A DNA stretch of 63,678 nucleotides, the filler included, from an uncultured Methanosarcinales archaeon (GTDB taxonomy: Archaea > Nanobdellota > Nanobdellia > Woesearchaeales > CAYZNE01), in the NCBI GenBank assembly GCA_964405295.1. It is 14 parts of 14 records of this genome, joined end to end, with 100 filler letters (N's around TTAATTAATTAA, not from the genome) between each part and the next. Parts side by side here need not be neighbours in the genome. Positions count along the whole stretch, not along the records: positions 5,137 to 10,013 come from CAYONI010000043.1; 13 more parts are not named here. One strand, written 5' to 3'. Below, one piece after another: positions 5,137 through 56,959 of this stretch (the first letter of the stretch is position 1; every line of letters begins with the position of its first letter). Below the pieces are notes generated by a model. It was not told the origin of the DNA. It saw only the letters and a program-made list of their open reading frames with translations, and did not search any database. A program made the translations under genes and the position numbers.

Positions 5137-5701
5137 TCGTAGAAAATCAAGGTAGACTTTGTATTATATATGATGTAACTACCTGTAAACAACTTATTAT
5201 TCCTATCAATATGTCTAGTCGTTATCTTGAAGAAGAAATGACTAAGAAACAAAAAGACAAATGGGCTGGTTATGAAATACCAGAAGGAAGTAAAAAATGA
5301 AAAGATATGTATTCATAGCAGTAAGGGGTGAAGAATGTGTTTTCTATGACAGAGTAGAAGAATGTAAAATCATAGTCCCTATGAACCAACTATGTCATTA
5401 TTCCAGAGTCAAAATGACTGCAATAGAAATGGAAAATGAGATAGAAAGAAGGATGTGATAATATCTAGGCTCTTTACATAATGTAGAGGGCTTTTTTTTG
5501 CCTGTGCATAACTCTAAGATTTTTATCTTAAAAAGTGGTATAATAAAGATATAATTAAATAATATAAAACTATGGACAAAGAACAAGCATTTAAAATATT
5601 AACATCTATATTCCCTACTTTAAGATTAAATGAACAAGAAAGACAAAGTGTTCTAAAAGCTTATGAGGTTGTAGAAAAAGAATTAGGATTAATAAAAGAA
5701 G

Positions 5702-6088
5702 ATGACAAAAAAAAGAAATAAGAAAACAGTAGGGAAAAAATTAGATATAGTTTGGTCAGAAGCCATAAAAGTAAGAGCTGGATATAAGTGTGAGCATTGT
5801 GGTAAAACAACAAACCTAAACTCACATCATATATTCACGAGATCAAGAAAATCTACTAGGTGGGAACTAGATAATGGTATTTGCTTATGTGTAGGTTGTC
5901 ATATGTTTTCAAGCAAGTTTTCAGCACATAAGACAGGGGTTGAATTTACGCATTGGCTAGAAGAAAAAAAAGGTAAAAAGTGGGTTGAAACACTACAAAG
6001 AATGTCTAATGAAATATACAGACCAACACTTGAAGAAATGGAGGAAACATTAACTTACCTAGAAAAATATGTTAATAACGCTAAGTAA
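5702..6088 (+). CDS. NinG-like HNH endonuclease
   Basis: CEHCG...NSHHIFTR...TRWELDNGICLCVGCH. Confidence 0.8.
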   Translation: MTKKRNKKTVGKKLDIVWSEAIKVRAGYKCEHCGKTTNLNSHHIFTRSRKSTRWELDNGICLCVGCHMFSSKFSAHKTGVEFTHWLEEKKGKKWVETLQRMSNEIYRPTLEEMEETLTYLEKYVNNAK

Positions 6089-6374
6089 AATATCAAAAGA
6101 TTATAATTTATCTTTAAATTATCTATTATCTAAAGGTAAGGCTTATGGTATTATAAAAAGAAATAAGAAAAATGATTGTATAGATGAAAAATATTTAAAG
6201 TTGTTAAAAGAATATTATGCTATGTCTTATTTAAGGAACTTTATAATTTACTGGATTGAATATACTTTTGATGATAGAGAATTAAGAGTTGAATTATTAT
6301 GTCAACTTGTAAGAATGGATTATAATGAAGTAATAAGATTTATAATACTAAAAGATTTAATGTGGAATTTATAA
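6069..6374 (+). CDS. Phage hypothetical protein
   Basis: Overlapping co-oriented ORF. Confidence 0.5.
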   Translation: MLITLSKISKDYNLSLNYLLSKGKAYGIIKRNKKNDCIDEKYLKLLKEYYAMSYLRNFIIYWIEYTFDDRELRVELLCQLVRMDYNEVIRFIILKDLMWNL

Positions 6375-6497
6375 AAATAATATGAAAAAATGGAACCAAT
6401 AGAATTAGAAGATGAATGTATTATATATAATGGAGTAAAATATACAAAAGACCAATGGGAAATAAAACAAAAACAAGATAAATAATTAAATAATAAT

Positions 6498-6743
6498 ATG
6501 TATTATATAATATTAAAACGAGATAATGAATTTTATCCAGCCTTGATAGAAGAATTAGGATTTTCTAAAGGAAACTATTTAACTATGGGAAAAGGTCTAA
6601 CAACAAAAGGTAAATGGGGTGTAGATTTATTTTGTTGTAAAACTAGAAAACAAGCAATAAAAAAAGTAAAGGATATAAAAGAAAATGGAGTAAAATATTT
6701 TAGGATGAATTATTTAAAAAATTATGGATTTACTTTAAAATAA
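6498..6743 (+). CDS. Phage hypothetical protein
   Basis: Co-oriented ORF in the phage gene string. Confidence 0.5.
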   Translation: MYYIILKRDNEFYPALIEELGFSKGNYLTMGKGLTTKGKWGVDLFCCKTRKQAIKKVKDIKENGVKYFRMNYLKNYGFTLK

Positions 6744-6941
6744 TTACCACTTCCCTACTCTCTTGATACATCTATTTATCACTCCCCTACCGAAAAAATA
6801 GATATACCAGAAGGGTAGGGGACAACCTTAGCCCAATAAACACAACACTTATGAAAAAAAAGGAAAAAACACAAGAAATAACCAAAATAGAACTAAATGA
6901 GGAGGTAGAAAATAAAATATTAAAAATAATAAAACAAAAAT

Positions 6942-7472
6942 ATGAAAATAGGCTACATAGGTGGGACTTTTGATCTACCACATTACGGACATTATGAAAT
7001 ATTTAGAAAAGCAAAGCTAATTTGTGATTACTTAATAGTAGCTGTAAATACAGATGAGTTTTGTGAGAGATATAAAAGAAAACCAATAATGACAAAAGAT
7101 GAAAGAATGAGAACTATAGAATATTGTAGATATGTAGATGAAGTAGTTGTAAATATAGGAAATGAAGACTCAACTTTAACAGTTGATACTTACATAGAGG
7201 CAAAAGGTAATATAGATTTTATATTTCACGGTGATGATTGGGTAGGAGATAAGCTAAAGACACAAATGGGAATAACAGAAAGATGGTTAGAAGATAAAAA
7301 TATAGATATGGTATATTTAGATAATACTAAAGGTATATCAACAACTGATTTAATAAATAGAATAAATGAAAGGAATAGTAATATTGACTCACGACAAATC
7401 AAGGTTCAAGGAAATACTGGAACAGAATATGATAAAGTTAAAGAACTTTTCAATAATAGTAGCAACAAATGA
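6942..7472 (+). CDS. Cytidylyltransferase (TagD/RfaE-like, HIGH superfamily)
   Basis: GGTFDLPHYGH, HGDDW and GISTT motifs. Confidence 0.9.
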   Translation: MKIGYIGGTFDLPHYGHYEIFRKAKLICDYLIVAVNTDEFCERYKRKPIMTKDERMRTIEYCRYVDEVVVNIGNEDSTLTVDTYIEAKGNIDFIFHGDDWVGDKLKTQMGITERWLEDKNIDMVYLDNTKGISTTDLINRINERNSNIDSRQIKVQGNTGTEYDKVKELFNNSSNK

Positions 7473-7814
7473 AGAACCATCTAAGTATGAGAAACTAGCA
7501 TTTGAAGTGGGAATAGAAAACTTTGATGAGTTTATATTATTACAGGATAGTGTAATGGTTAAAGATAGTTCCCTATTCAAAAAAATGTTAGAATCCCCTA
7601 ATTCAGTTTGGTTATCTAAATGGGGTCAAAACTATTTTTGTAAGTATAAGAGTGAGATATTAAGACAAATACCTATAGAGATAAAAGATAAAAAAGATTC
7701 AATATATTGGGAAAGACAATTACACGAAGATTATAGAAAGTTAGAAGTTCCTGAAATTATGTTAGATGGATGTTTAGATAATACACTTGTATTTGAAGAA
7801 GCCTATGGTAGAAA
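7366..7814 (+). CDS. Hypothetical, possibly glycosyltransferase-related (runs into scaffold gap)
   Basis: DEFILLQDS segment; follows the cytidylyltransferase. Confidence 0.45.
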
Positions 7815-7955
7815 NNNNNNNNNNNNNNNNNNNNNNNNNNNNNNNNNNNNNNNNNNNNNNNNNNNNNNNNNNNNNNNNNNNNNNNNNNNNNNNNNNNNNN
7901 NNNNNNNNNNNNNNTGGTAAAACTATATTCTTACCAAGCGAAATAATGAAAAAAA

Positions 7956-10013
7956 ATGGTATTACATCAAGTCCAGAAGATAATAGCTGAAGATACTCAT
8001 AGATTTAGAGTATTATGTCTAGGCAGAAGAACTGGAAAGACTTTTTTATCTGTAGTAGAACTCATAGGACAGGCTATAGGAAATGAAGATGGATTAGTTA
8101 GTTATGTAGCACCAACTTATAGACAGGCTAGAGATATAGCTTGGCAAGAACTTAAAAGGGAAACTGCATCTTATGTTGTAAGTATAAATGAATCAAGATT
8201 AGAGGTAGTGATACCTAATAAGTTTGGTGGAACTAGCACAATAGATTTAAGAGGTTGGGAAAGTATAGATTCACTTCGTGGACAGAAGCGACATTTTTTG
8301 GTTTTAGATGAAGTAGCAATGTATAGAAACTTCTGGGTTAATTGGCAAGAAGTATTAAGACCATTACTTACTGATTACAAGGGAGGTTGTTTATTTGCTT
8401 CTACACCTAAAGGTTATAATCACTTCTATGACTTATATAACCTAGAACAGACGAATGATAACTTTAAGAGCTTTCATTACACTTCTTATGATAACCCTTA
8501 TATAGATTCTAGTGAGATAGATGAGGCTAAAAGAGATATGACTGTGGATAGATTCCAACAGGAGTATATGGCTAATTTCAGAAAGGCAGAAGGATTAGTA
8601 TATCCTGAATTCAATAGAGATATTCATATAGTAGATGAAGATAAGATTCCACCATTAAAAGAAACTATTTGTGGAGTTGATTTTGGTTATACAAACCCAT
8701 CAGCAATACTTGTAATAGGTGTTGATTATGATAGTAATTATTGGATAGTAGATGAATGGTATAAGACTAAACAAACTAAAGAACAACTTATAACTGTATT
8801 AAGTGGGAAAAGCCCTAATTATGTGTATCCAGATCCAGCAGATGCAGAAGGAGTAGCTAAATTAGAAGAAGCTGGCTTTAATGTTATGGAAGTTAATAAG
8901 AATAAGATAGAGGGAATAAATAAGGTTAGAGAAATGATTAAACAGGGTAGATTAAGAGTAAAGAGAGGATGTGTTAATTTTGTAAATGAAATAGAGAGTT
9001 ATCATTACCCAGAAGACAATGCTAATGGAAATAATAAAGAAGAACCAGTTAAAGAGAATGACCATTGTTTTAGTTGGGATACTCAAATATCTATGGCAGA
9101 TGGAACTGAAAAGAATATTTATGAAGTTAAAGCTGGTGAATTTGTTAAAAGTAAGAATGGAATAAACGAAGTATTAAAGGCTTGGGTTATAAAACCTGAG
9201 AAGTTATATGAAACTACATTTTCTAATGGATATAAAGTAAAATCTACAATCGATCACAAGTTTTACACAAATAGAGGTATAATACCATTGAATGAATTGC
9301 GTTATGATGATACAATAATAGTATTAGACCAGCTTAAAATAAATCAATGGAAGAAACAATTATTTTCAATGAACAAAGATATAATTGGGATGGTAAATAC
9401 TATTGCCCAGCAGGTGGGTGTAAAGATGGTAGAAAAAGACTACATCAAGCTATTTGGGAAGAACACAATGGAAAAATACCTAAAGGGATACAAATACACC
9501 ACAAAAACAAAGACAGAAGAGATAATAGACTCTCTAATCTTGAGCTTAAAACAATATCAGAACATATGTCTGAACATTCTAAAGAAAGGTGGAGCAGAAA
9601 AGAATATAGAGAAAGAGGTTTACAAAATCTCAGAGATATTAACGACCTTGCAAAAGCTTGGCACTCTTCAGAAGAAGGTAAAAAGTGGCATTCACAACAC
9701 GGAAAAGATGTGTGGAAAGACAGAAAGAAATATAAAAAGATATGTGAAGAGTGTGGTAAAGAATATGAAACATATTATCCTAGTAGATCAAAATTTTGTC
9801 ATCAGAATTGTAGAGCAAAGTTTTATAGGAGAAGAAATAAACTTCAACATAACAGTAGAGTCTGAACATAATTATTATGCTAATGGTATTTTAGTTAAGA
9901 ATTGTATGGATAGTTTAAAGTATGCATTATATAATCACGATATAAATGCTTATAACCCTGCTATGATACAAGAGATATATCAAAACAGAAAAACAATAGA
10001 TTCATTTGATTAA
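7956..10013 (+). CDS. terL: Terminase large subunit (PBSX-like) with intein
   Basis: GRRTGKT Walker A, LVLDEVA Walker B, GVDFGY nuclease motif; the NDH/CMDSLKYA motif is split by the intein. Confidence 0.95.
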   Translation: MVLHQVQKIIAEDTHRFRVLCLGRRTGKTFLSVVELIGQAIGNEDGLVSYVAPTYRQARDIAWQELKRETASYVVSINESRLEVVIPNKFGGTSTIDLRGWESIDSLRGQKRHFLVLDEVAMYRNFWVNWQEVLRPLLTDYKGGCLFASTPKGYNHFYDLYNLEQTNDNFKSFHYTSYDNPYIDSSEIDEAKRDMTVDRFQQEYMANFRKAEGLVYPEFNRDIHIVDEDKIPPLKETICGVDFGYTNPSAILVIGVDYDSNYWIVDEWYKTKQTKEQLITVLSGKSPNYVYPDPADAEGVAKLEEAGFNVMEVNKNKIEGINKVREMIKQGRLRVKRGCVNFVNEIESYHYPEDNANGNNKEEPVKENDHCFSWDTQISMADGTEKNIYEVKAGEFVKSKNGINEVLKAWVIKPEKLYETTFSNGYKVKSTIDHKFYTNRGIIPLNELRYDDTIIVLDQLKINQWKKQLFSMNKDIIGMVNTIAQQVGVKMVEKDYIKLFGKNTMEKYLKGYKYTTKTKTEEIIDSLILSLKQYQNICLNILKKGGAEKNIEKEVYKISEILTTLQKLGTLQKKVKSGIHNTEKMCGKTERNIKRYVKSVVKNMKHIILVDQNFVIRIVEQSFIGEEINFNITVESEHNYYANGILVKNCMDSLKYALYNHDINAYNPAMIQEIYQNRKTIDSFD
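9288..9316 (+). promoter_or_regulatory. Predicted sigma70 promoter inside the intein
   Basis: TTGAAT, 17-bp spacer, TG-n-TACAAT, 30 bp upstream of the HNH ATG. Confidence 0.6.
9347..9865 (+). CDS. HNH homing endonuclease in an alternative frame within the intein
   Basis: RLHQAIWEEHNGKIPKGIQIHHKNKDRRDNRLSNLEL...H plus C-terminal CEECG...FCHQNC zinc finger. Confidence 0.9.
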   Translation: MEETIIFNEQRYNWDGKYYCPAGGCKDGRKRLHQAIWEEHNGKIPKGIQIHHKNKDRRDNRLSNLELKTISEHMSEHSKERWSRKEYRERGLQNLRDINDLAKAWHSSEEGKKWHSQHGKDVWKDRKKYKKICEECGKEYETYYPSRSKFCHQNCRAKFYRRRNKLQHNSRV

Positions 10014-15692: not shown

Positions 15693-17399
15693 ATGGCTCT
15701 AACTATTCAGCAAAGAGAAGATCGGAATAACCTTTTTGCAAAAGGGATGAAAAGATGTCCTAAATGTAAAGATGAGAAAAAATTAGATGAATTTGGTATA
15801 AGGGCAGGGACTTATACGGGGAGAAAGTCGTATTGCATATCTTGTGTTTCTAAATATCAAGAGAAAGCCCGCAAGGAGAGAATGGTTAAGTCTGGGAAAT
15901 TGGCGTTGAGAGATAAATTGGAACAAAGAAGGATACTATTATTAAAACATCAAATGAAAATGTGTCCCAGCTGTATGAAAGATTTACCATTAGAAGACTT
16001 TTATCACACAGAGACGGGAGACTATAATTCTTGGTGTAAGGAATGTGTTCTTAATGAAAGAAAGAGAAACCGCCATTCCCCGGGAAAAATTAAGCAATCT
16101 ATATTATTGGACTCCATGGGACTGGCATTCTGTTCCCGGTGCCATAAGTTAATGTCAATAGAAGACAAATTTTATCCCCAAGAATCGACTGGGTATAGGT
16201 ATTATTGCAAGGAGTGTTGTAAGATCATCCAGCTTTATAGGCTTAAAGGGATGCACCCAAAAGTGGTTAGGGAAGAATTAGTTAAGTTAGGACTGATGGA
16301 GTGTCGTGATTGTGGAGATATAATTCCTGATGAAGATTCACATCATCCTTATTGGTGCAGTAGGTGCGAGAGAGGCTATCATCGTGCTAGGGCTAGTAAA
16401 GATAAAAACTGCAATCGTAGGAATAGAAGCTTGGTTGCCATGGGAGTTAAATTATGTTCGAAATGTAAGACGGTGCTGCCAATAAGCCTATTTCTTCGGA
16501 AAAAGAACCTGCTTGTAGGGTATAGGTCTAACTGTAAAAAATGTGATTCCATTAATGGCAGACCCTTATCTCGCTTATCTATAGAGGATCAACTAAATGC
16601 CTTTAATATAGCTGTATGTGCATGTGGAACTGCTGATTATAAAAAGAATATGAGCATGGGCGAAAAGGGTGAGTATTATTGCAAAGAATGTACCAAAAAA
16701 AATGAATACAAAAAAATGACTCTTGCCCAGAAAAGACAAAAAAGGCGAGACGAGTTATTCAAAAGAGGATTAAGACTATGCGAGCGATGTTATGAAATAT
16801 CTGAATTATCCAATTTTCATAAGAATAAGAACTATCCTAATGAAAAAAATATATACTGTAAATCTTGTGATAAAGATGGCGTAAATAGGTGTAGAGGTAG
16901 TTATAAACTTATAGAGGCGCGGGAACTCTTGAAGTATGAGTTGCGGAAATGTTGCGCATGCTTTAATACAAAACCATTATCTGAGTTTCCTTTAGATGCT
17001 TATTTCGCTAATAGTGGGCATGGACATATATGTTTAGAGTGTTCTAAAAAAAATGCAAAGGCAAAGCGAAGAAAAAAGCAGTCTGATTTATCAGTCTCAG
17101 CATTAAGAGAATACGCCAGAAAGCATATTGGCGACCCTGGAGATAAATATATTGATTATCTTATTCCTAATGCGCGGATAGGTATTGCGCAAGAGCCGGA
17201 CTATTTCTGTGTTATAGATGGTAAGCTATTTTTACTGAAAGTTGATTTCATAAGATATGTGGAAGAAAAATATGGCATAGTGAAAAAGGCGGTCAGATCC
17301 AGATTAGATACAGGCGCAACAGCAGAACAGGCTATATTGTCGAAAAAAGAATATTCGCGAGTACGCAAGGAGGAAAGGCGTGAAAGAGAAAACATTTGA
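15693..17399 (+). CDS. Multi-zinc-ribbon protein (8 CxxC..CxxC units)
   Basis: Repeated CxxC pairs and a C-terminal HTH-like segment; AAGGAGG RBS. Confidence 0.8.
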   Translation: MALTIQQREDRNNLFAKGMKRCPKCKDEKKLDEFGIRAGTYTGRKSYCISCVSKYQEKARKERMVKSGKLALRDKLEQRRILLLKHQMKMCPSCMKDLPLEDFYHTETGDYNSWCKECVLNERKRNRHSPGKIKQSILLDSMGLAFCSRCHKLMSIEDKFYPQESTGYRYYCKECCKIIQLYRLKGMHPKVVREELVKLGLMECRDCGDIIPDEDSHHPYWCSRCERGYHRARASKDKNCNRRNRSLVAMGVKLCSKCKTVLPISLFLRKKNLLVGYRSNCKKCDSINGRPLSRLSIEDQLNAFNIAVCACGTADYKKNMSMGEKGEYYCKECTKKNEYKKMTLAQKRQKRRDELFKRGLRLCERCYEISELSNFHKNKNYPNEKNIYCKSCDKDGVNRCRGSYKLIEARELLKYELRKCCACFNTKPLSEFPLDAYFANSGHGHICLECSKKNAKAKRRKKQSDLSVSALREYARKHIGDPGDKYIDYLIPNARIGIAQEPDYFCVIDGKLFLLKVDFIRYVEEKYGIVKKAVRSRLDTGATAEQAILSKKEYSRVRKEERRERENI

Positions 17400-38454: not shown

Positions 38455-41400
38455 GAACTCGAAAAACAAGCAGACCGATTAATTGAGGCTATTAATAAAA
38501 AAACTACTATTAAGAAAAAGGTTAAACCAATTAAAGCTAAAGTAGTCAAAGAAACACTCGAAAAAAAGCCAAAGACCCAACCGGAGCAAAAGGTGAAAAC
38601 TGAGAAGCCTATTCTTCCACAAAAAGGAGATAAAATAAAAGTAACTCTTGGAGGAAAGGAAATAATTATTCCTTTTGATTTATTAACTGTTGAACCTAAT
38701 GGAAGAATTGTATTTGACCATTTTGGGATGAAGACTGCAAAACCAGAAGAATATACAATAGTAAAACAACCCGAAACTTTTGAAGAAAGACTTGCTGCTA
38801 CAAAAGAAATATCTGAAGCACAAAAATTAGTTCCTGAAATAAAAAATTCTGAACAAAGAACAGCTTATAATGAAAAAGTAGAGAAGTTACGAAACAAAGA
38901 ACGTATAAAAATTGCTGATGATAAAATAGCAAGTGGATTTAATAAATTAGCAGATATAACAAAAACAAGAAAATTTATTGTATCAGAAGGAGAAAATCCT
39001 CTTACAATTAAAAATGTTTATGATGCTATAAAAGATATTATTGAAGGTTATATTATTAAAGGACATTTATCTGCTGAACAAATTATTAAAAAATTAAAAC
39101 AAGATGTATTAAAATTTGGAATAAAAAATGAACATATTGATAAATATAATGATGAATTAGTTGAATTGATTGGAGAACAAAGAAAGAGGAAGCAAGTATT
39201 AAACAAAGTTGAAATATTAAAAAGTAAAATTACTGATTTAAAACAAACCCAAAAAGACATCGGAATTCAAGTGAAAGAAATAACTGATCATATTAAAAGA
39301 AATAAAAATTTTTTTAGTAAAAAAGATTATAATAATTTATTAACTATAATTAAAAATATTGCTAAACAAAAACAAGAAAGAAATATAAAAGGTGAAATTA
39401 TGATTAAAAAACCTTTTAGTGAATATTTAAAAGAAACTTTAGATATTATTGATAAAGCAGAAATTAAATATAAAGAGAAACTTAGAATAGAAAAAATAGA
39501 AAAACAAGAAAAAAAAGAAGTAGAAAAAATCACTAAAATTGAAACAGATATTAGTAAAGTATTAAAAAATTATAAAACAATTTCAAAAAAAGGAATAAAA
39601 ATAACAGAACTTTCTGGGTATGTAAATACTGCTAAAGATATATTTAATCAGTATAAATTACTAAAGAAAAAAGAAATTTCTCTTTTAAGTGAATTTAAAA
39701 ATTATGGATTTACAAAAGAAGAAGTATTAAAAGATGTAAAATTAGTATCTGAAAATGAATTTAGAGAATATATTGATAACCAGAGAAATTTAATTGAAGA
39801 AAAAAAGAATTCAAATAATTCTAAAGTTAGAAAATTAGCTATTTATAATGAAATTGCATTAAATGATATGCTACAAATGTATAATATGGATTCTGGAGAA
39901 TTAAATAATTTATTAAAAAATATTAAAAGAACCATAAAAGAAGGTAAACGAAAAGATGCTGATGAAAGATTAAAAAAAGCAGAAAAACATAATGAATGGA
40001 GAGAAAAAACTATAAATTTAGTTAAATCGGGAGTTGGAAAAGAATATTTTAGAGTTATAAATCCCAAAAGAGGTAAACATGTTAAAATGGATATGTTAGC
40101 TAATATTTACAATGTAAGAGCATGGTTAGGACATATAGGAGTAAAACTTGGAGTTAGACCAGAAAGAACTTTGTGGAGTGATCCATTAAATACAGAATTA
40201 TATGAAGGAAAAAATGGAATAATGGAATCTGAAAATAAACACGAAAATTTAAAAAGAGAAAATAAAAAAAATATTGAAGATATATTAAAAATATGGGGAA
40301 AAACTGCAATAGCAAGAGATAAAAGAGCAGCAAAACAAAAAGAACGTAATGATACGGGAGCTAAAGTAATATTTGCAGATGGAAGTACTGAAACACTAAA
40401 ATTAACTAAAAACGAAGCAATGGGTATTTTATTTCAATCAAGAGATACTGATACTCATTTAAGTTTTTTTAGACCTATTGAATTAATTAATGGTCGCCAA
40501 GCTGGAATGGGATGGAATGAAAAAACAATAAAAGCATTAGAAAAATATATTGGAGAAGATAATTTAAAAATACTTGATAAATTTCAAGAAAAGATTCCTT
40601 ATTGGGGAGAAGTAGCGGATAAAGTTCATATTTTTTTATATGGTGTTTCAATGAAAATTAAAAAAGAATATATTCCTACATCGAGAAAAGAAATGGCACA
40701 AAAAACAATAGAAGTAGATAAAGGAACATTTAATATGCCATCTGCATCGGGAGGACACTTAAAACAAAGGAAAGGTGTTACAGGAACTTATGACTATATA
40801 GATATTTTTGATTTATATAATGGATATGTAAATGATATGATTAATTATACTTCTTATGCAAAAATGTTTAAAAAATGGAATTCTATTTTTAATAATCCAA
40901 TTGTAAAAAAAGGACTTACAAATAAATATGGTAATAGATTTGCAAATATGTGGAAGTTCTATTTAAATAATATAACAGGACGAGCTGATTTACAAATGGG
41001 AGGTACAATTGATTATTTTGCAAGAACATTTCAAAAAGGTGCTTTATATTTATCAGCTATGGTACCATTAAAACAAATTATATCTACTGCATATTTTACT
41101 AATTATATTAAAGCTGAACAAATTCCTATATTTACTAAAGATATTCCTATTATATCTTCTGAAGTAATAATTAATAAATTTGCTAAAAAAATTGGAGAAG
41201 GGATAAAAAATGTTAATATAGAAATGTATAATTATTTAAGTAATACATCTTTTGTTAAATTAAGAAAAGAAAGAAGAGATGTTATTTTTGGTTCAGATTA
41301 TCAATTAGACCCCAAAAAAATTAAAATAATTGAAAATGATAAAACTTTATTAGATACTTATAAAAAAATTAAACAAGGTAAAATAAAACCTTATAGTAAT

Positions 41401-42756
41401 CGAGCAAAAGAATTTAATGATGCTATTGGTGGATCATTGATAGGTATGGCAGATAGAATGCCTATTGTAATAGGAGGAACTGCCTATTGTAAATTACAAT
41501 ACAAAAGATTGTCTGGTAAAAAATTAACATTAAATAATATTAAAAATGCTAATGAAGGTAATCCCAATAAACATTTTAAACAAACTTTAATTGATTGGGA
41601 ATCTATTGCAGAAAGTACACAACAATCAATGAGATCATCTAATCAGGCTTACTGGAGAGTGGCTAATCAATGGTCAAGAGCTTTAGTAATGTTTACATCA
41701 AGTCAACATCAATTAATGTTAGCAAGAATGTATCATAGAAAGGCTATGCAAAATTCATTTCAGGAGGGCAATATAAAAAGTGGTTTTAAACACATGCAAG
41801 CATATACTATGTTTGCAATAGTTAGTCCTCTTATATTTAGTTATTTTAATAATTCTTTTAGAATAGATGATGAAAAAAATATTGCAGAAAATGAACAAAC
41901 ATGGGATATTGCAATAGGAATGTTAGCATCAGGTATTCCTGGATTACATCAAGCAATGGAAGCTGTAAAAGCAACAGCATTAAAAAAACCATGGGGAGAA
42001 AGTTTTGATGTAAATCCAGTTATTGGTACTTTAGATAAATTAAGAATGCACGCTATAGAAGCAATAAGAATTACTGATGATGCAAGTAAAACTAAAGAAA
42101 CAAAAAATGCAGTATATACAAAATTAGCAATGGATATATTAAGATTAAAAGGTATAAATGCTCCACAAATTATTAGATATTATGATAATTGGTCTAATAT
42201 TAGTGAAACTGATTTTCCATTACAATCAGCACTTGGAATTAATTCAGATTATATTTCTGGTAAAAAATTATTGGATATAAGAAAAAATTATAATGATATA
42301 TCTTTTGAAGGTGAACAAAAAAAAGAATTTATAAAAAGATTAAAATATATTAATAATCAAAAAGGTAAAAATTTACGAATTGATTTAGATGATCCTAAAA
42401 TAAAAATGATTTATGATGCAATTTATAATGCAAGTCAAAAAGAAGACACATGGGCTATTAATTACATTTTAAAATTTGAAAAAACATTGCATAGTAAACC
42501 TGAAAAATATAATAGAAATGTAGATAAAACAGCATATTTAGCAAATATTTCTAAAGATGCAAAAACAACAGTATTAAATCTATATAATAAATTGAAACTT
42601 TATGGATATACAATGAGTAAAAACCTCAAAAAATTAGCTAAAGAATATGATAAAGGTAATTATGATTTAACAAAAGAAACAGAAAGAGAGAGATTAGAAA
42701 AAAATATTTCAAAAGAAGGAAAATCTAAATCAGAAAGAATAGAAGGTGAATTATAA
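38455..42756 (+). CDS. Very large phage-like protein (5' partial, over 1430 aa)
   Basis: Frame open from the contig start; Lys-rich helical N-terminal part; no motif recognised. Confidence 0.7.
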   Translation, partial: ELEKQADRLIEAINKKTTIKKKVKPIKAKVVKETLEKKPKTQPEQKVKTEKPILPQKGDKIKVTLGGKEIIIPFDLLTVEPNGRIVFDHFGMKTAKPEEYTIVKQPETFEERLAATKEISEAQKLVPEIKNSEQRTAYNEKVEKLRNKERIKIADDKIASGFNKLADITKTRKFIVSEGENPLTIKNVYDAIKDIIEGYIIKGHLSAEQIIKKLKQDVLKFGIKNEHIDKYNDELVELIGEQRKRKQVLNKVEILKSKITDLKQTQKDIGIQVKEITDHIKRNKNFFSKKDYNNLLTIIKNIAKQKQERNIKGEIMIKKPFSEYLKETLDIIDKAEIKYKEKLRIEKIEKQEKKEVEKITKIETDISKVLKNYKTISKKGIKITELSGYVNTAKDIFNQYKLLKKKEISLLSEFKNYGFTKEEVLKDVKLVSENEFREYIDNQRNLIEEKKNSNNSKVRKLAIYNEIALNDMLQMYNMDSGELNNLLKNIKRTIKEGKRKDADERLKKAEKHNEWREKTINLVKSGVGKEYFRVINPKRGKHVKMDMLANIYNVRAWLGHIGVKLGVRPERTLWSDPLNTELYEGKNGIMESENKHENLKRENKKNIEDILKIWGKTAIARDKRAAKQKERNDTGAKVIFADGSTETLKLTKNEAMGILFQSRDTDTHLSFFRPIELINGRQAGMGWNEKTIKALEKYIGEDNLKILDKFQEKIPYWGEVADKVHIFLYGVSMKIKKEYIPTSRKEMAQKTIEVDKGTFNMPSASGGHLKQRKGVTGTYDYIDIFDLYNGYVNDMINYTSYAKMFKKWNSIFNNPIVKKGLTNKYGNRFANMWKFYLNNITGRADLQMGGTIDYFARTFQKGALYLSAMVPLKQIISTAYFTNYIKAEQIPIFTKDIPIISSEVIINKFAKKIGEGIKNVNIEMYNYLSNTSFVKLRKERRDVIFGSDYQLDPKKIKIIENDKTLLDTYKKIKQGKIKPYSNRAKEFNDAIGGSLIGMADRMPIVIGGTAYCKLQYKRLSGKKLTLNNIKNANEGNPNKHFKQTLIDWESIAESTQQSMRSSNQAYWRVANQWSRALVMFTSSQHQLMLARMYHRKAMQNSFQEGNIKSGFKHMQAYTMFAIVSPLIFSYFNNSFRIDDEKNIAENEQTWDIAIGMLASGIPGLHQAMEAVKATALKKPWGESFDVNPVIGTLDKLRMHAIEAIRITDDASKTKETKNAVYTKLAMDILRLKGINAPQIIRYYDNWSNISETDFPLQSALGINSDYISGKKLLDIRKNYNDISFEGEQKKEFIKRLKYINNQKGKNLRIDLDDPKIKMIYDAIYNASQKEDTWAINYILKFEKTLHSKPEKYNRNVDKTAYLANISKDAKTTVLNLYNKLKLYGYTMSKNLKKLAKEYDKGNYDLTKETERERLEKNISKEGKSKSERIEGEL

Positions 42757-55897: not shown

Positions 55898-56959
55898 ATG
55901 AAAAGAATCAGAGACATCTTTGAAACGCTATGCAGCATTGAAAATATAGCAATGGCGCATCAAAACGCCCGTAAAGGGAAAGCACATTACCGAGAGGTAA
56001 AAAAAGTAGACGCGAATCCTGAAAAATATTTTACGGCACTGCATGATATGCTGAGACAGAAAGCCTTTGATACCTCTCCGTACGTAGCAATGGTGAGGAC
56101 TGAGTCCGGGAAAAGACGGGAAATATTAAAATTGCCGTATTTCCCGGATCGCATTGTCCATCACTGCATCGTGCAGGTATTAAGCCCGGGTTGGTATAAA
56201 AATTTAATTAGAGATACTTATGCATGTATCCCTAAAAGAGGGATCCATGATGGTGTCAACCGTATCCGCCAGGCCCTGCGTGATCAACCCGGGACCCGAT
56301 ATTGCTTAAAAATGGACGCTAAAAAGTTTTATCCTTCCATTGACCAGGACATACTGAAAGTGATCATCCGAAAAAAGATAAAAGACCCTGATGTATTGGC
56401 GTTAATTGACGGTATTATCGATAGCACAGCGGCCGGCGTGCCCATCGGCAACTATTTGAGCCAATTTTTCGGGAATTTGTATTTAAGCGGATATGACCAT
56501 TGGATGAAGGAATGCCATCAGTGCAAATATTACTTTCGGTATTGCGATGATGTCGTAATTTTAGACCCTTCAAAGGCCAGGTTGCATGATTTGCGTAGAG
56601 AAACAGATACATATTGGAGTAACCGGCTGAAGTTGACGGTGAAAAAAAACTGGCAGGTGTTCCCGATTGACACCAGGGGGATTGATTTCTTGGGATATCG
56701 GTTCTTCCACGGATACATATTGCTGAGGAAATCAACGGCTAAAAATTTTAAAAGGAAAATGCGCTTATTGAAACGGCATTGGCGTAAAATGCCGCCTGTG
56801 TCTGTCCTGAGTACAGTAATGAGTTATGAAGGGTGGCTAAGACCGGCAAATTGCCTGAATCTGAAAAAAAGCCACATTGACAACGAAATAAAGGATATCG
56901 TCTCTGACGTAAGCCGCAAAATGAACATTAATAACCCATTGTGGAGGTGTGTACTATGA
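55898..56959 (+). CDS. DGR reverse transcriptase
   Basis: PYFPDRIVHH, GVPIGNYLSQ, YFRYCDD and IDFLGY. Confidence 0.93.
   Translation: MKRIRDIFETLCSIENIAMAHQNARKGKAHYREVKKVDANPEKYFTALHDMLRQKAFDTSPYVAMVRTESGKRREILKLPYFPDRIVHHCIVQVLSPGWYKNLIRDTYACIPKRGIHDGVNRIRQALRDQPGTRYCLKMDAKKFYPSIDQDILKVIIRKKIKDPDVLALIDGIIDSTAAGVPIGNYLSQFFGNLYLSGYDHWMKECHQCKYYFRYCDDVVILDPSKARLHDLRRETDTYWSNRLKLTVKKNWQVFPIDTRGIDFLGYRFFHGYILLRKSTAKNFKRKMRLLKRHWRKMPPVSVLSTVMSYEGWLRPANCLNLKKSHIDNEIKDIVSDVSRKMNINNPLWRCVL

Follow-up and report, generated by a model that had tools for sequence, protein, structure and literature searches.

The origin of the homing endonucleases of inteins is a long-standing question, and the proposed route, in which a free-standing nuclease enters a mini-intein and later moves into frame, rested on few examples. 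The locus analyzed here, an intein-bearing phage gene for the large subunit of terminase (terL), raises the question in a particular form: can one stretch of DNA encode the intein in one reading frame and its HNH endonuclease in another, as the original prediction held, and if so, is this layout an artefact, a relic or a working element?

The terminase intein and the gene nested in it

The window, i.e., the whole stretch of 63,678 nucleotides that was analyzed, consists of short contigs joined by N linkers, and the locus lies on a piece of 4,877 bases (positions 5137-10013; Table 1). The source bin comprises 1.27 Mb in 98 contigs. The piece is phage-like, with a cytidylyltransferase gene, a gene without known function, a probable terS and terL, and its bacterial-type promoter words suggest that it may be a stray phage contig of a bacterium. 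The first two genes (6942-7920) lie directly 5′ of terS/terL, and both are kept in an intein-free relative, L201. The ORF at the start of terL is probably that of the terminase small subunit, judged from its position; its C-terminal peptide is that of the 130-aa ORF preceding terL in L201. The same contig carries a second, unrelated zinc-binding HNH-like ORF of 128 aa (5702-6088; Pfam HNH 19.2 bits, under the cut-off). Elsewhere in the window, we noted a basic protein of 568 aa that is rich in C-x2-C repeats and matched no Pfam family (15693-17399, another contig), a reverse transcriptase (55898-56959, another short contig; RVT_1 48.6 bits) and a 1,387-aa ORF with no Pfam match (38593-42756).

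Table 1. Features of the terL locus, in coordinates of the window
Feature	Position	Strand	Description
Probable terS, 3′ end	7915-7990	+	remainder falls in the 100-N gap
terL, terminase large subunit	7956-10013	+	685-aa precursor ORF: 370-aa N-extein, 279-aa intein, 36-aa C-extein
His of the H-x-x-D nuclease motif	9063-9065	+	final N-extein residue; from sequence, equivalence by motif
Class-1-type intein, one contiguous frame	9066-9902	+	279 aa; Cys1, T61-x-x-H64, N261, H268, ends V-K-N
Promoter-like site for the nested gene	9288-9316	+	-35-like hexamer, 17-nt spacer, TG, -10-like hexamer 36 nt before the ATG
Nested HNH endonuclease gene	9347-9865	+	172 aa, offset +2 (frame 3 of the intein); HNH_3 domain aa 31-74
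Parts of the nested HNH			HNH_3 domain, then long helices, one C-x2-C...C-x3-C zinc finger
C-extein	9903-10010	+	opens with the +1 Cys; carries the Asp of the H-x-x-D motif

The precursor matched the TerL families Terminase_6N and Terminase_6C of Pfam and phrog_2. Its stop codon is confirmed by a matching record, L109, which reads on into a 602-aa gene that we call portal-like from its position. At the insertion site, the intein-free L201 aligns to the motif of the solved TerL 5OEA, and in the SPP1 terminase, according to the accessible text, H400 and D403 bind the catalytic metal (PMC3592435). The catalytic Asp sits in the C-extein, so that TerL should need splicing. This position and the intact copies of the element in isolated phages (see below) point to a self-splicing precursor.

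Class 1 inteins have Cys or Ser at position 1, T-x-x-H in block B, a C-terminal Asn and Cys, Ser or Thr at +1, and a penultimate His is usual, not obligatory. As predicted, a 279-aa intein splits the NDH/CMD of TerL, with N-D-H before and C-M-D after the insert, and it has C1, T61/H64 in block B, N279 and the +1 Cys. C1, H64 and N279 were invariant in 91/91 aligned inteins. The intein frame matched Intein_splicing (55.2 bits, cut-off 35.8) and no Pfam endonuclease family, in agreement with the claim that its in-frame middle lacks a LAGLIDADG or HNH motif. The penultimate residue is Lys278, and His268 of block F presumably may replace the missing His. This Lys (VKN) had been singled out as unusual: it is indeed present, but it is no oddity, since 92 of 144 related inteins have His there and the other 52 have Ser (32), Ala (6), Lys (5) or another residue (9). 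These 52 include all 13 members of the window's clade (FastTree support 98). The structural model had pLDDT values of 93-98 over residues 1-80 and 251-279, and 60 residues in the middle fell below 50. A fold search with this model yielded 43 matches at E ≤ 0.001, the best being the gp41-1 intein (rmsd 1.9, E 1.6e-7). As modelled, the two intein ends form a complete HINT fold.

The predicted 172-aa HNH plus zinc-finger ORF in another frame was recovered complete by ORF calling and matched Pfam HNH_3 (67.2 bits, cut-off 24.8) as well as phrog_15471, so that the HMM search of both frames gave Intein_splicing in one and HNH_3 in the other. No endonuclease VII family was matched by the nested ORF in Pfam at E ≤ 0.1. 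The HNH_3 catalytic residues are intact (H51, H52, N60, N64 and H73); H51, H52, N64, H73 and three of the four Cys were invariant in 149/149 aligned HNHs, and N60 and C151 were found in 148/149. A profile of the family collected 1,132 representatives at E ≤ 1e-30. The HNH model had a mean pLDDT of 96.6. By profile search the closest solved protein was I-HmuI (E 2.7e-4), which was also the top fold match in both searches (VIA-align Z 6.2, rmsd 3.2 over 74 residues; Foldseek E 0.06); with Foldseek the HNH model gave no match at E ≤ 0.001. The likeness to I-HmuI is consistent but moderate, and in the models it is confined to the N-terminal half. We infer that the HNH protein would be the homing endonuclease of this intein.

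The 519 bp predicted to be open in two frames are so; many stops interrupt the remaining forward frame and each of the reverse frames. When the HNH gene was recoded synonymously, the intein frame acquired 5.7 stops on average and stayed clear of them in 1 of 20,000 trials; when the intein was recoded, the HNH frame was open in none of 20,000. The double open frame is far beyond chance. We consider it likely that the contiguous terL intein and its frame-3 HNH gene work as a canonical homing intein, with the two functions placed in different frames.

Relatives and empty alleles

The census of relatives comprised the window and 200 fetched loci (99 viral, 9 genome, 80 metagenomic and 12 isolate phages), drawn from the best 80 of at least 478 and the best 80 of at least 419 confirmed matches and from 12 of 156 phage records. 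The host genes were taken as TerL from the junction motif and the displayed ORFs. The 201 loci were reduced to 169 by collapse at 95% identity, and the distinct loci had the HNH in frame 3 (109, with L108 and L143 assigned by eye) or frame 2 (23), a split intein (15), no intein (15), a truncated record (6) or a single stop (1); these proportions lean to window-like forms because loci were taken in order of their similarity to the HNH of the window. Contiguous inteins open in two frames were present at 132 of the 169 distinct loci carrying a relative of this HNH, and the first 20 relatives were all nested out of frame in a TerL intein (20/20). The layout had been called rare rather than certainly new; this holds for the literature (see below), but not for nature, where 132/169 loci share it. 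The element is intact in the isolated phages phiCDHM19, TJE1, Highwayman and LS06-2018-MD07, for which the annotation lists the terminase only.

The insertion site slides by single codons. Among the 139 loci with both junctions readable, the Asp occupies the third position of the C-extein in 76, as in the window, the second in 53, a position upstream in 9 and the fifth in 1, and 10 of the 12 clade-mates of the window use the neighbouring codon. An in-frame HNH copy was found at none of the 201 census loci; a search for longer proteins returned one TerL with a complete in-frame form (P0022) among 16 matches. In P0022, TerL is 50% identical to the window's N-extein, the intein sits at the neighbouring codon and the HNH is 42% identical over residues 33-165. 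Two further database proteins, P0020 and P0021, run from the N-half of a TerL intein into the HNH and end without a C-half, as true fusions or through assembly errors. Placing the four states on the HNH tree (162 labelled rows) takes at least 23 changes, and the 127 intein-bearing rows show 6 state changes vs. ~28 for shuffled labels; the deep branches of the HNH-family trees are poorly supported, and the root and the order of the architectures are not readable from them.

Several loci deserve separate mention. In Exiguobacterium phage EauM-23 (L200:2200-3110), the same HNH family lies between the terL codons for N-H-S and D-A-T-R-Y, and the locus is annotated as a truncated terL and a free HNH. 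The insert has group-I-intron-like core words and matched a group I intron in Rfam at E 4.2 only; the HNH in L200 is probably inside such an intron. At gathering thresholds, Rfam gave no match at 15 loci. Lactobacillus phage CL2 (L191:1670-2684) has an unannotated split intein: the TerL of the record stops after the intein N-half, and the C-half and the C-extein are encoded 3′ of the HNH gene in a frame that lacks annotation. Two inteins interrupt TerL in L010, L011 and L033: the first is close to the P-loop and shows, by eye, a LAGLIDADG-like motif, and the C-terminal one has a frame-2 HNH. The inteins of L006, L007, L016, L024 and L037 measure 363-369 aa, their HNH has ~90 extra N-terminal residues, and ~770-840 nt are dual coding. 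In L005 (209-598) and L018 (2557-3108), the antisense frame is also open across the overlap (171 and 202 codons), probably as a by-product of composition. The record of phiCD119 (L190) holds nearly the element of phiCDHM19, with which it was collapsed at 95% identity, but with stops and shifts in both frames, by sequencing error or decay.

Filled and empty alleles were found in the sequencing runs. Run X1 held an intein-free contig that has 1 difference over 7915-9066 (99.9% identical upstream) and reads H-L-M-D at the site; downstream of the site it has 8 differences in 50 nt and is then unlike the window. This near-identical empty allele is a candidate for the natural target of the HNH. An empty-allele contig of run X4 has 141 differences upstream and the same tail as that of X1, and this tail recurs in L201, a complete empty relative with terS-terL-portal and neither intein nor HNH there. 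A contig of run X2 stops exactly at 9066, and runs X3 and X4 hold short intein pieces with 0-1 differences and without linked extein. The +1 position is Cys in the filled allele and Leu in the intein-free alleles, so that the +1 nucleophile travels with the element. When compared with L201, the window is 56% identical in the C-extein and 58% in the portal, vs. 94% and 78% upstream; a sharp identity step at the insertion site, the mark of co-conversion, was not seen against L201, and identity falls gradually. Downstream co-conversion is described for nicking HNH enzymes in the accessible text of PMC2790892. The allele pattern fits homing with downstream co-conversion, and it also fits a crossover that removed the intein.

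Similarity of the HNH and of its host gene do not run together: the nearest HNH relatives (56-60% identical) sit in exteins that are 23-43% identical, and the most similar extein (L170, 44%) carries a distant frame-2 intein. Judged from sequence, this mismatch and the patchy presence of the element fit a mobile element. They bear on the best-surviving alternative, namely that the HNH is kept for the phage and no longer homes, acting as a terminase cofactor, in the manner of HK97 gp74, or as a weapon against co-infecting phages. The family is indeed tied to terL without an intein, given that 11 of the 15 intein-less loci have it directly after an intact terL (the others: 1 on the opposite strand, 1 before terS, 1 with no terL nearby, and L200), and interference competition by a phage intron endonuclease, which lends itself to the weapon role, is in print (PMC11620839, accessible text). 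Yet the close relative L201 lacks both intein and HNH at this place, so that packaging does not need the HNH there, and the weapon role and homing are not mutually exclusive. With the marks of a mobile element also against it, we regard a purely phage-serving HNH as improbable and retain the homing intein in two frames.

Possible expression signals and selection in the two frames

Of the 109 frame-3 loci, 102 (~18 expected) open the HNH frame with an ATG, at a median of 4 codons after a stop. No Shine-Dalgarno sequence precedes the HNH ATG of the window, nor, by eye, its neighbouring genes, and frame-3 loci show no excess of such sequences (28% vs. 27% background). Initiation led by a Shine-Dalgarno sequence is thus not supported for the HNH of the window. 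A stable RNA structure was not detected over the HNH start region (z -0.43). Among 24 runs, no RNA data set was listed as containing the sequence, which has no bearing on whether it is expressed.

A scan with a sigma-70-type consensus placed a promoter-like site upstream of the ATG (Table 1), with a counterpart at the same position in five close relatives (L001, L003, L101, L110 and L113). Its bases double as splicing-domain codons, and 2 of 200 synonymous recodings reached its score. Scores ≥17 were obtained at 48/93 loci vs. 4/93 extein controls, and 26/93 loci scored above the null obtained by recoding each of them (p<0.05). In a plain scan of this region of the window, 8 sites were returned vs. 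10.9 expected in shuffles, which is not above chance. A different group of loci has the Bacteroidota -7 promoter element (motif from the accessible text of PMC6847099), which was found at 29/93 loci, in 24 at exactly 46 nt before the ATG, vs. 2/93 controls. These signals suggest that the HNH may be expressed separately, from the internal promoter-like site and the ATG.

Frame 3 is the -1 frame, and a programmed -1 frameshift from the terL frame would yield a TerL-intein(N)-HNH fusion instead of a separate protein. The missing Shine-Dalgarno sequence agrees with this, and fusions of an intein N-half to the HNH exist in P0020 and P0021. Nevertheless, a stop lies in the HNH frame three codons before the ATG, a slippery heptamer is absent from the window and from 5 of 6 close relatives and occurs at 12/101 loci vs. 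5/101 controls, 23 loci use the other frame, and the ATG and the promoter-like sites are conserved. We consider a frameshifted fusion very unlikely, and separate production of the HNH remains the preferred reading.

Per-frame dN/dS across homologues separated the two frames. For 11 disjoint frame-3 pairs taken together, it was 0.17 in the HNH frame, which indicates purifying selection, 1.14 in the intein frame, which does not, and 0.22 in the N-terminal splicing region; six frame-2 pairs gave 0.12 for the HNH frame and 2.22 for the intein frame. The intein-equivalent shadow frame had a dN/dS of 1.25 in one split pair and 1.20 in one free pair. Comparison of the window with its six nearest relatives gave 0.11-0.28 (HNH frame) and 0.87-1.26 (intein frame), with synonymous sites near saturation. 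The intein frame would be expected to hold a mean of 3.9 stops at 106 frame-3 loci and 14.6 at 22 frame-2 loci, vs. 0 observed, the classes being defined so; at 12 split and 12 free loci, stops in that frame occur at about the expected number. Viral contigs searched with the intein-frame protein gave 10 pattern matches, none of them confirmed, as expected if this frame drifts. These data show that across the HNH the intein frame has to stay open and is otherwise unconstrained; it acts as a stop-free linker that joins both parts of the splicing domain. The locus is a clean case of ~520 nt of dual coding in which one frame is functional and the other only avoids stops.

Two compensating indel errors had been named as the finding that would overturn the original prediction, and none were seen. 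Contigs of runs X1 (9121-10013) and X2 (9124-10013), either of which may be the source sample, match the window with 0 differences and 0 gaps, and L109 is identical to it over 8900-10013; no single listed piece of the two runs covers all of it, and only the window and L109 read across the 5′ junction. A dead or decaying HNH ORF, or a double frame created by assembly, is highly improbable: the in-frame P0022 and the phiCD119 record broken in both frames could be read that way, but a passenger is opposed by the purifying selection on the HNH and by its intact catalytic residues, and the indel artefact is ruled out by the gap-free contigs, the identical L109 and the 132 distinct loci of the same design.

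A probable homing intein in two frames and its known counterparts

A homing intein with splicing and cleavage encoded in different frames would act as follows. The intein at H-x-x-D is predicted to leave TerL by self-splicing; a separate HNH protein would be produced from the internal promoter-like site and ATG. By its likeness to I-HmuI, the HNH would nick intein-free terL alleles, and gene conversion would then copy the whole element into the nicked allele. As to origin, the HNH family may at first have been free-standing, with the 3′ end of terL already as its target, and may have entered mini-inteins at the same site more than once; such repeated entries could have given the split, frame-2, frame-3 and in-frame forms.

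A broader reading, which we offer tentatively and hold to be possible and no more than that, is that one HNH lineage targets the terL H-x-x-D codons in every vehicle (free-standing next to terL, within a group I intron, flanked by the halves of a split intein, overprinted in either other frame of a whole intein, and in frame), and that the overprinted state is favoured and not a passing intermediate, since splicing-domain codons double as a host-specific promoter that makes the nuclease apart from TerL. If true, the family would form a living series for endonuclease gain by inteins, with a natural filled/empty pair for testing. The HNH family supplies all the stages proposed for this gain at one target site, isolated phages included. 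To this the window contributes an almost identical empty allele, the candidate cognate substrate, together with a positionally conserved promoter-like site and the variety of vehicles that one HNH family uses at one site. Annotation misses the nested HNH genes, and CL2 lacks an annotated C-terminal intein half, so that such inteins look endonuclease-less.

A search of mainly open literature turned up no paper that treats this HNH family or any terminase intein with an HNH out of frame, and none linking phiCDHM19 or TJE1 with the word intein. The closest counterparts are the actinophage inteins of Gosselin, Arsenault and Gogarten (bioRxiv 10.1101/2025.01.02.630785), which contain endonuclease VII-like genes in frame 3; the accessible text also describes antisense LAGLIDADG and antisense VSR-like genes, and HNH in frame only. 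The window shares with them a contiguous intein with a separate same-strand endonuclease ORF in frame 3, terminase is among their host genes of non-canonical inteins, and a free-standing origin of the endonuclease is proposed there as here. In contrast, the nuclease here is HNH_3/I-HmuI-like with a zinc finger, not endonuclease VII, and the layout comes in two alternative frames and at a single site, TerL H-x-x-D, among phages from several groups of hosts. Such layouts are called rare in that text, whereas here they are the commonest form among the sampled loci.

The ShiLan element, as described in the accessible text of Arsenault et al. 2025 (PMC11855218), hides a frame-3 HNH in a phage methylase without an intein. 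It resembles the present case in having a zinc-finger HNH in frame 3 of a stop-free insertion, no Shine-Dalgarno sequence and a patchy distribution, but it has no splicing domain, whereas a complete HINT fold is predicted to flank the overlap here.

Fractured genes, in which an intein is split into two frames around an endonuclease gene, were reported by Dassa et al. 2009 (PMC2677866). Their split layout is matched by 15 of the 169 relatives, with the same HNH family and terL site, e.g., in Lactobacillus phage CL2; the window's intein differs in being one contiguous frame, even if its best structural match, gp41-1, likens it to split inteins. The endonucleases in the accessible text of Dassa et al. 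are Vsr-like or GIY-YIG, and the model given there has split and in-frame outcomes and no contiguous out-of-frame one.

I-HmuI (PDB 1U3E) and T4 MobE are nicking HNH homing endonucleases (PMC2790892, accessible text), with which the window's HNH shares the catalytic core and an extended two-part build. The match to I-HmuI covers HNH residues 6-81 only, and the C-terminal helices and the zinc finger are without a clear solved match. I-HmuI is intron-encoded and MobE free-standing, whereas the HNH of the window is nested in an intein. Out-of-frame intein endonucleases have been known since 2025 for another nuclease type.
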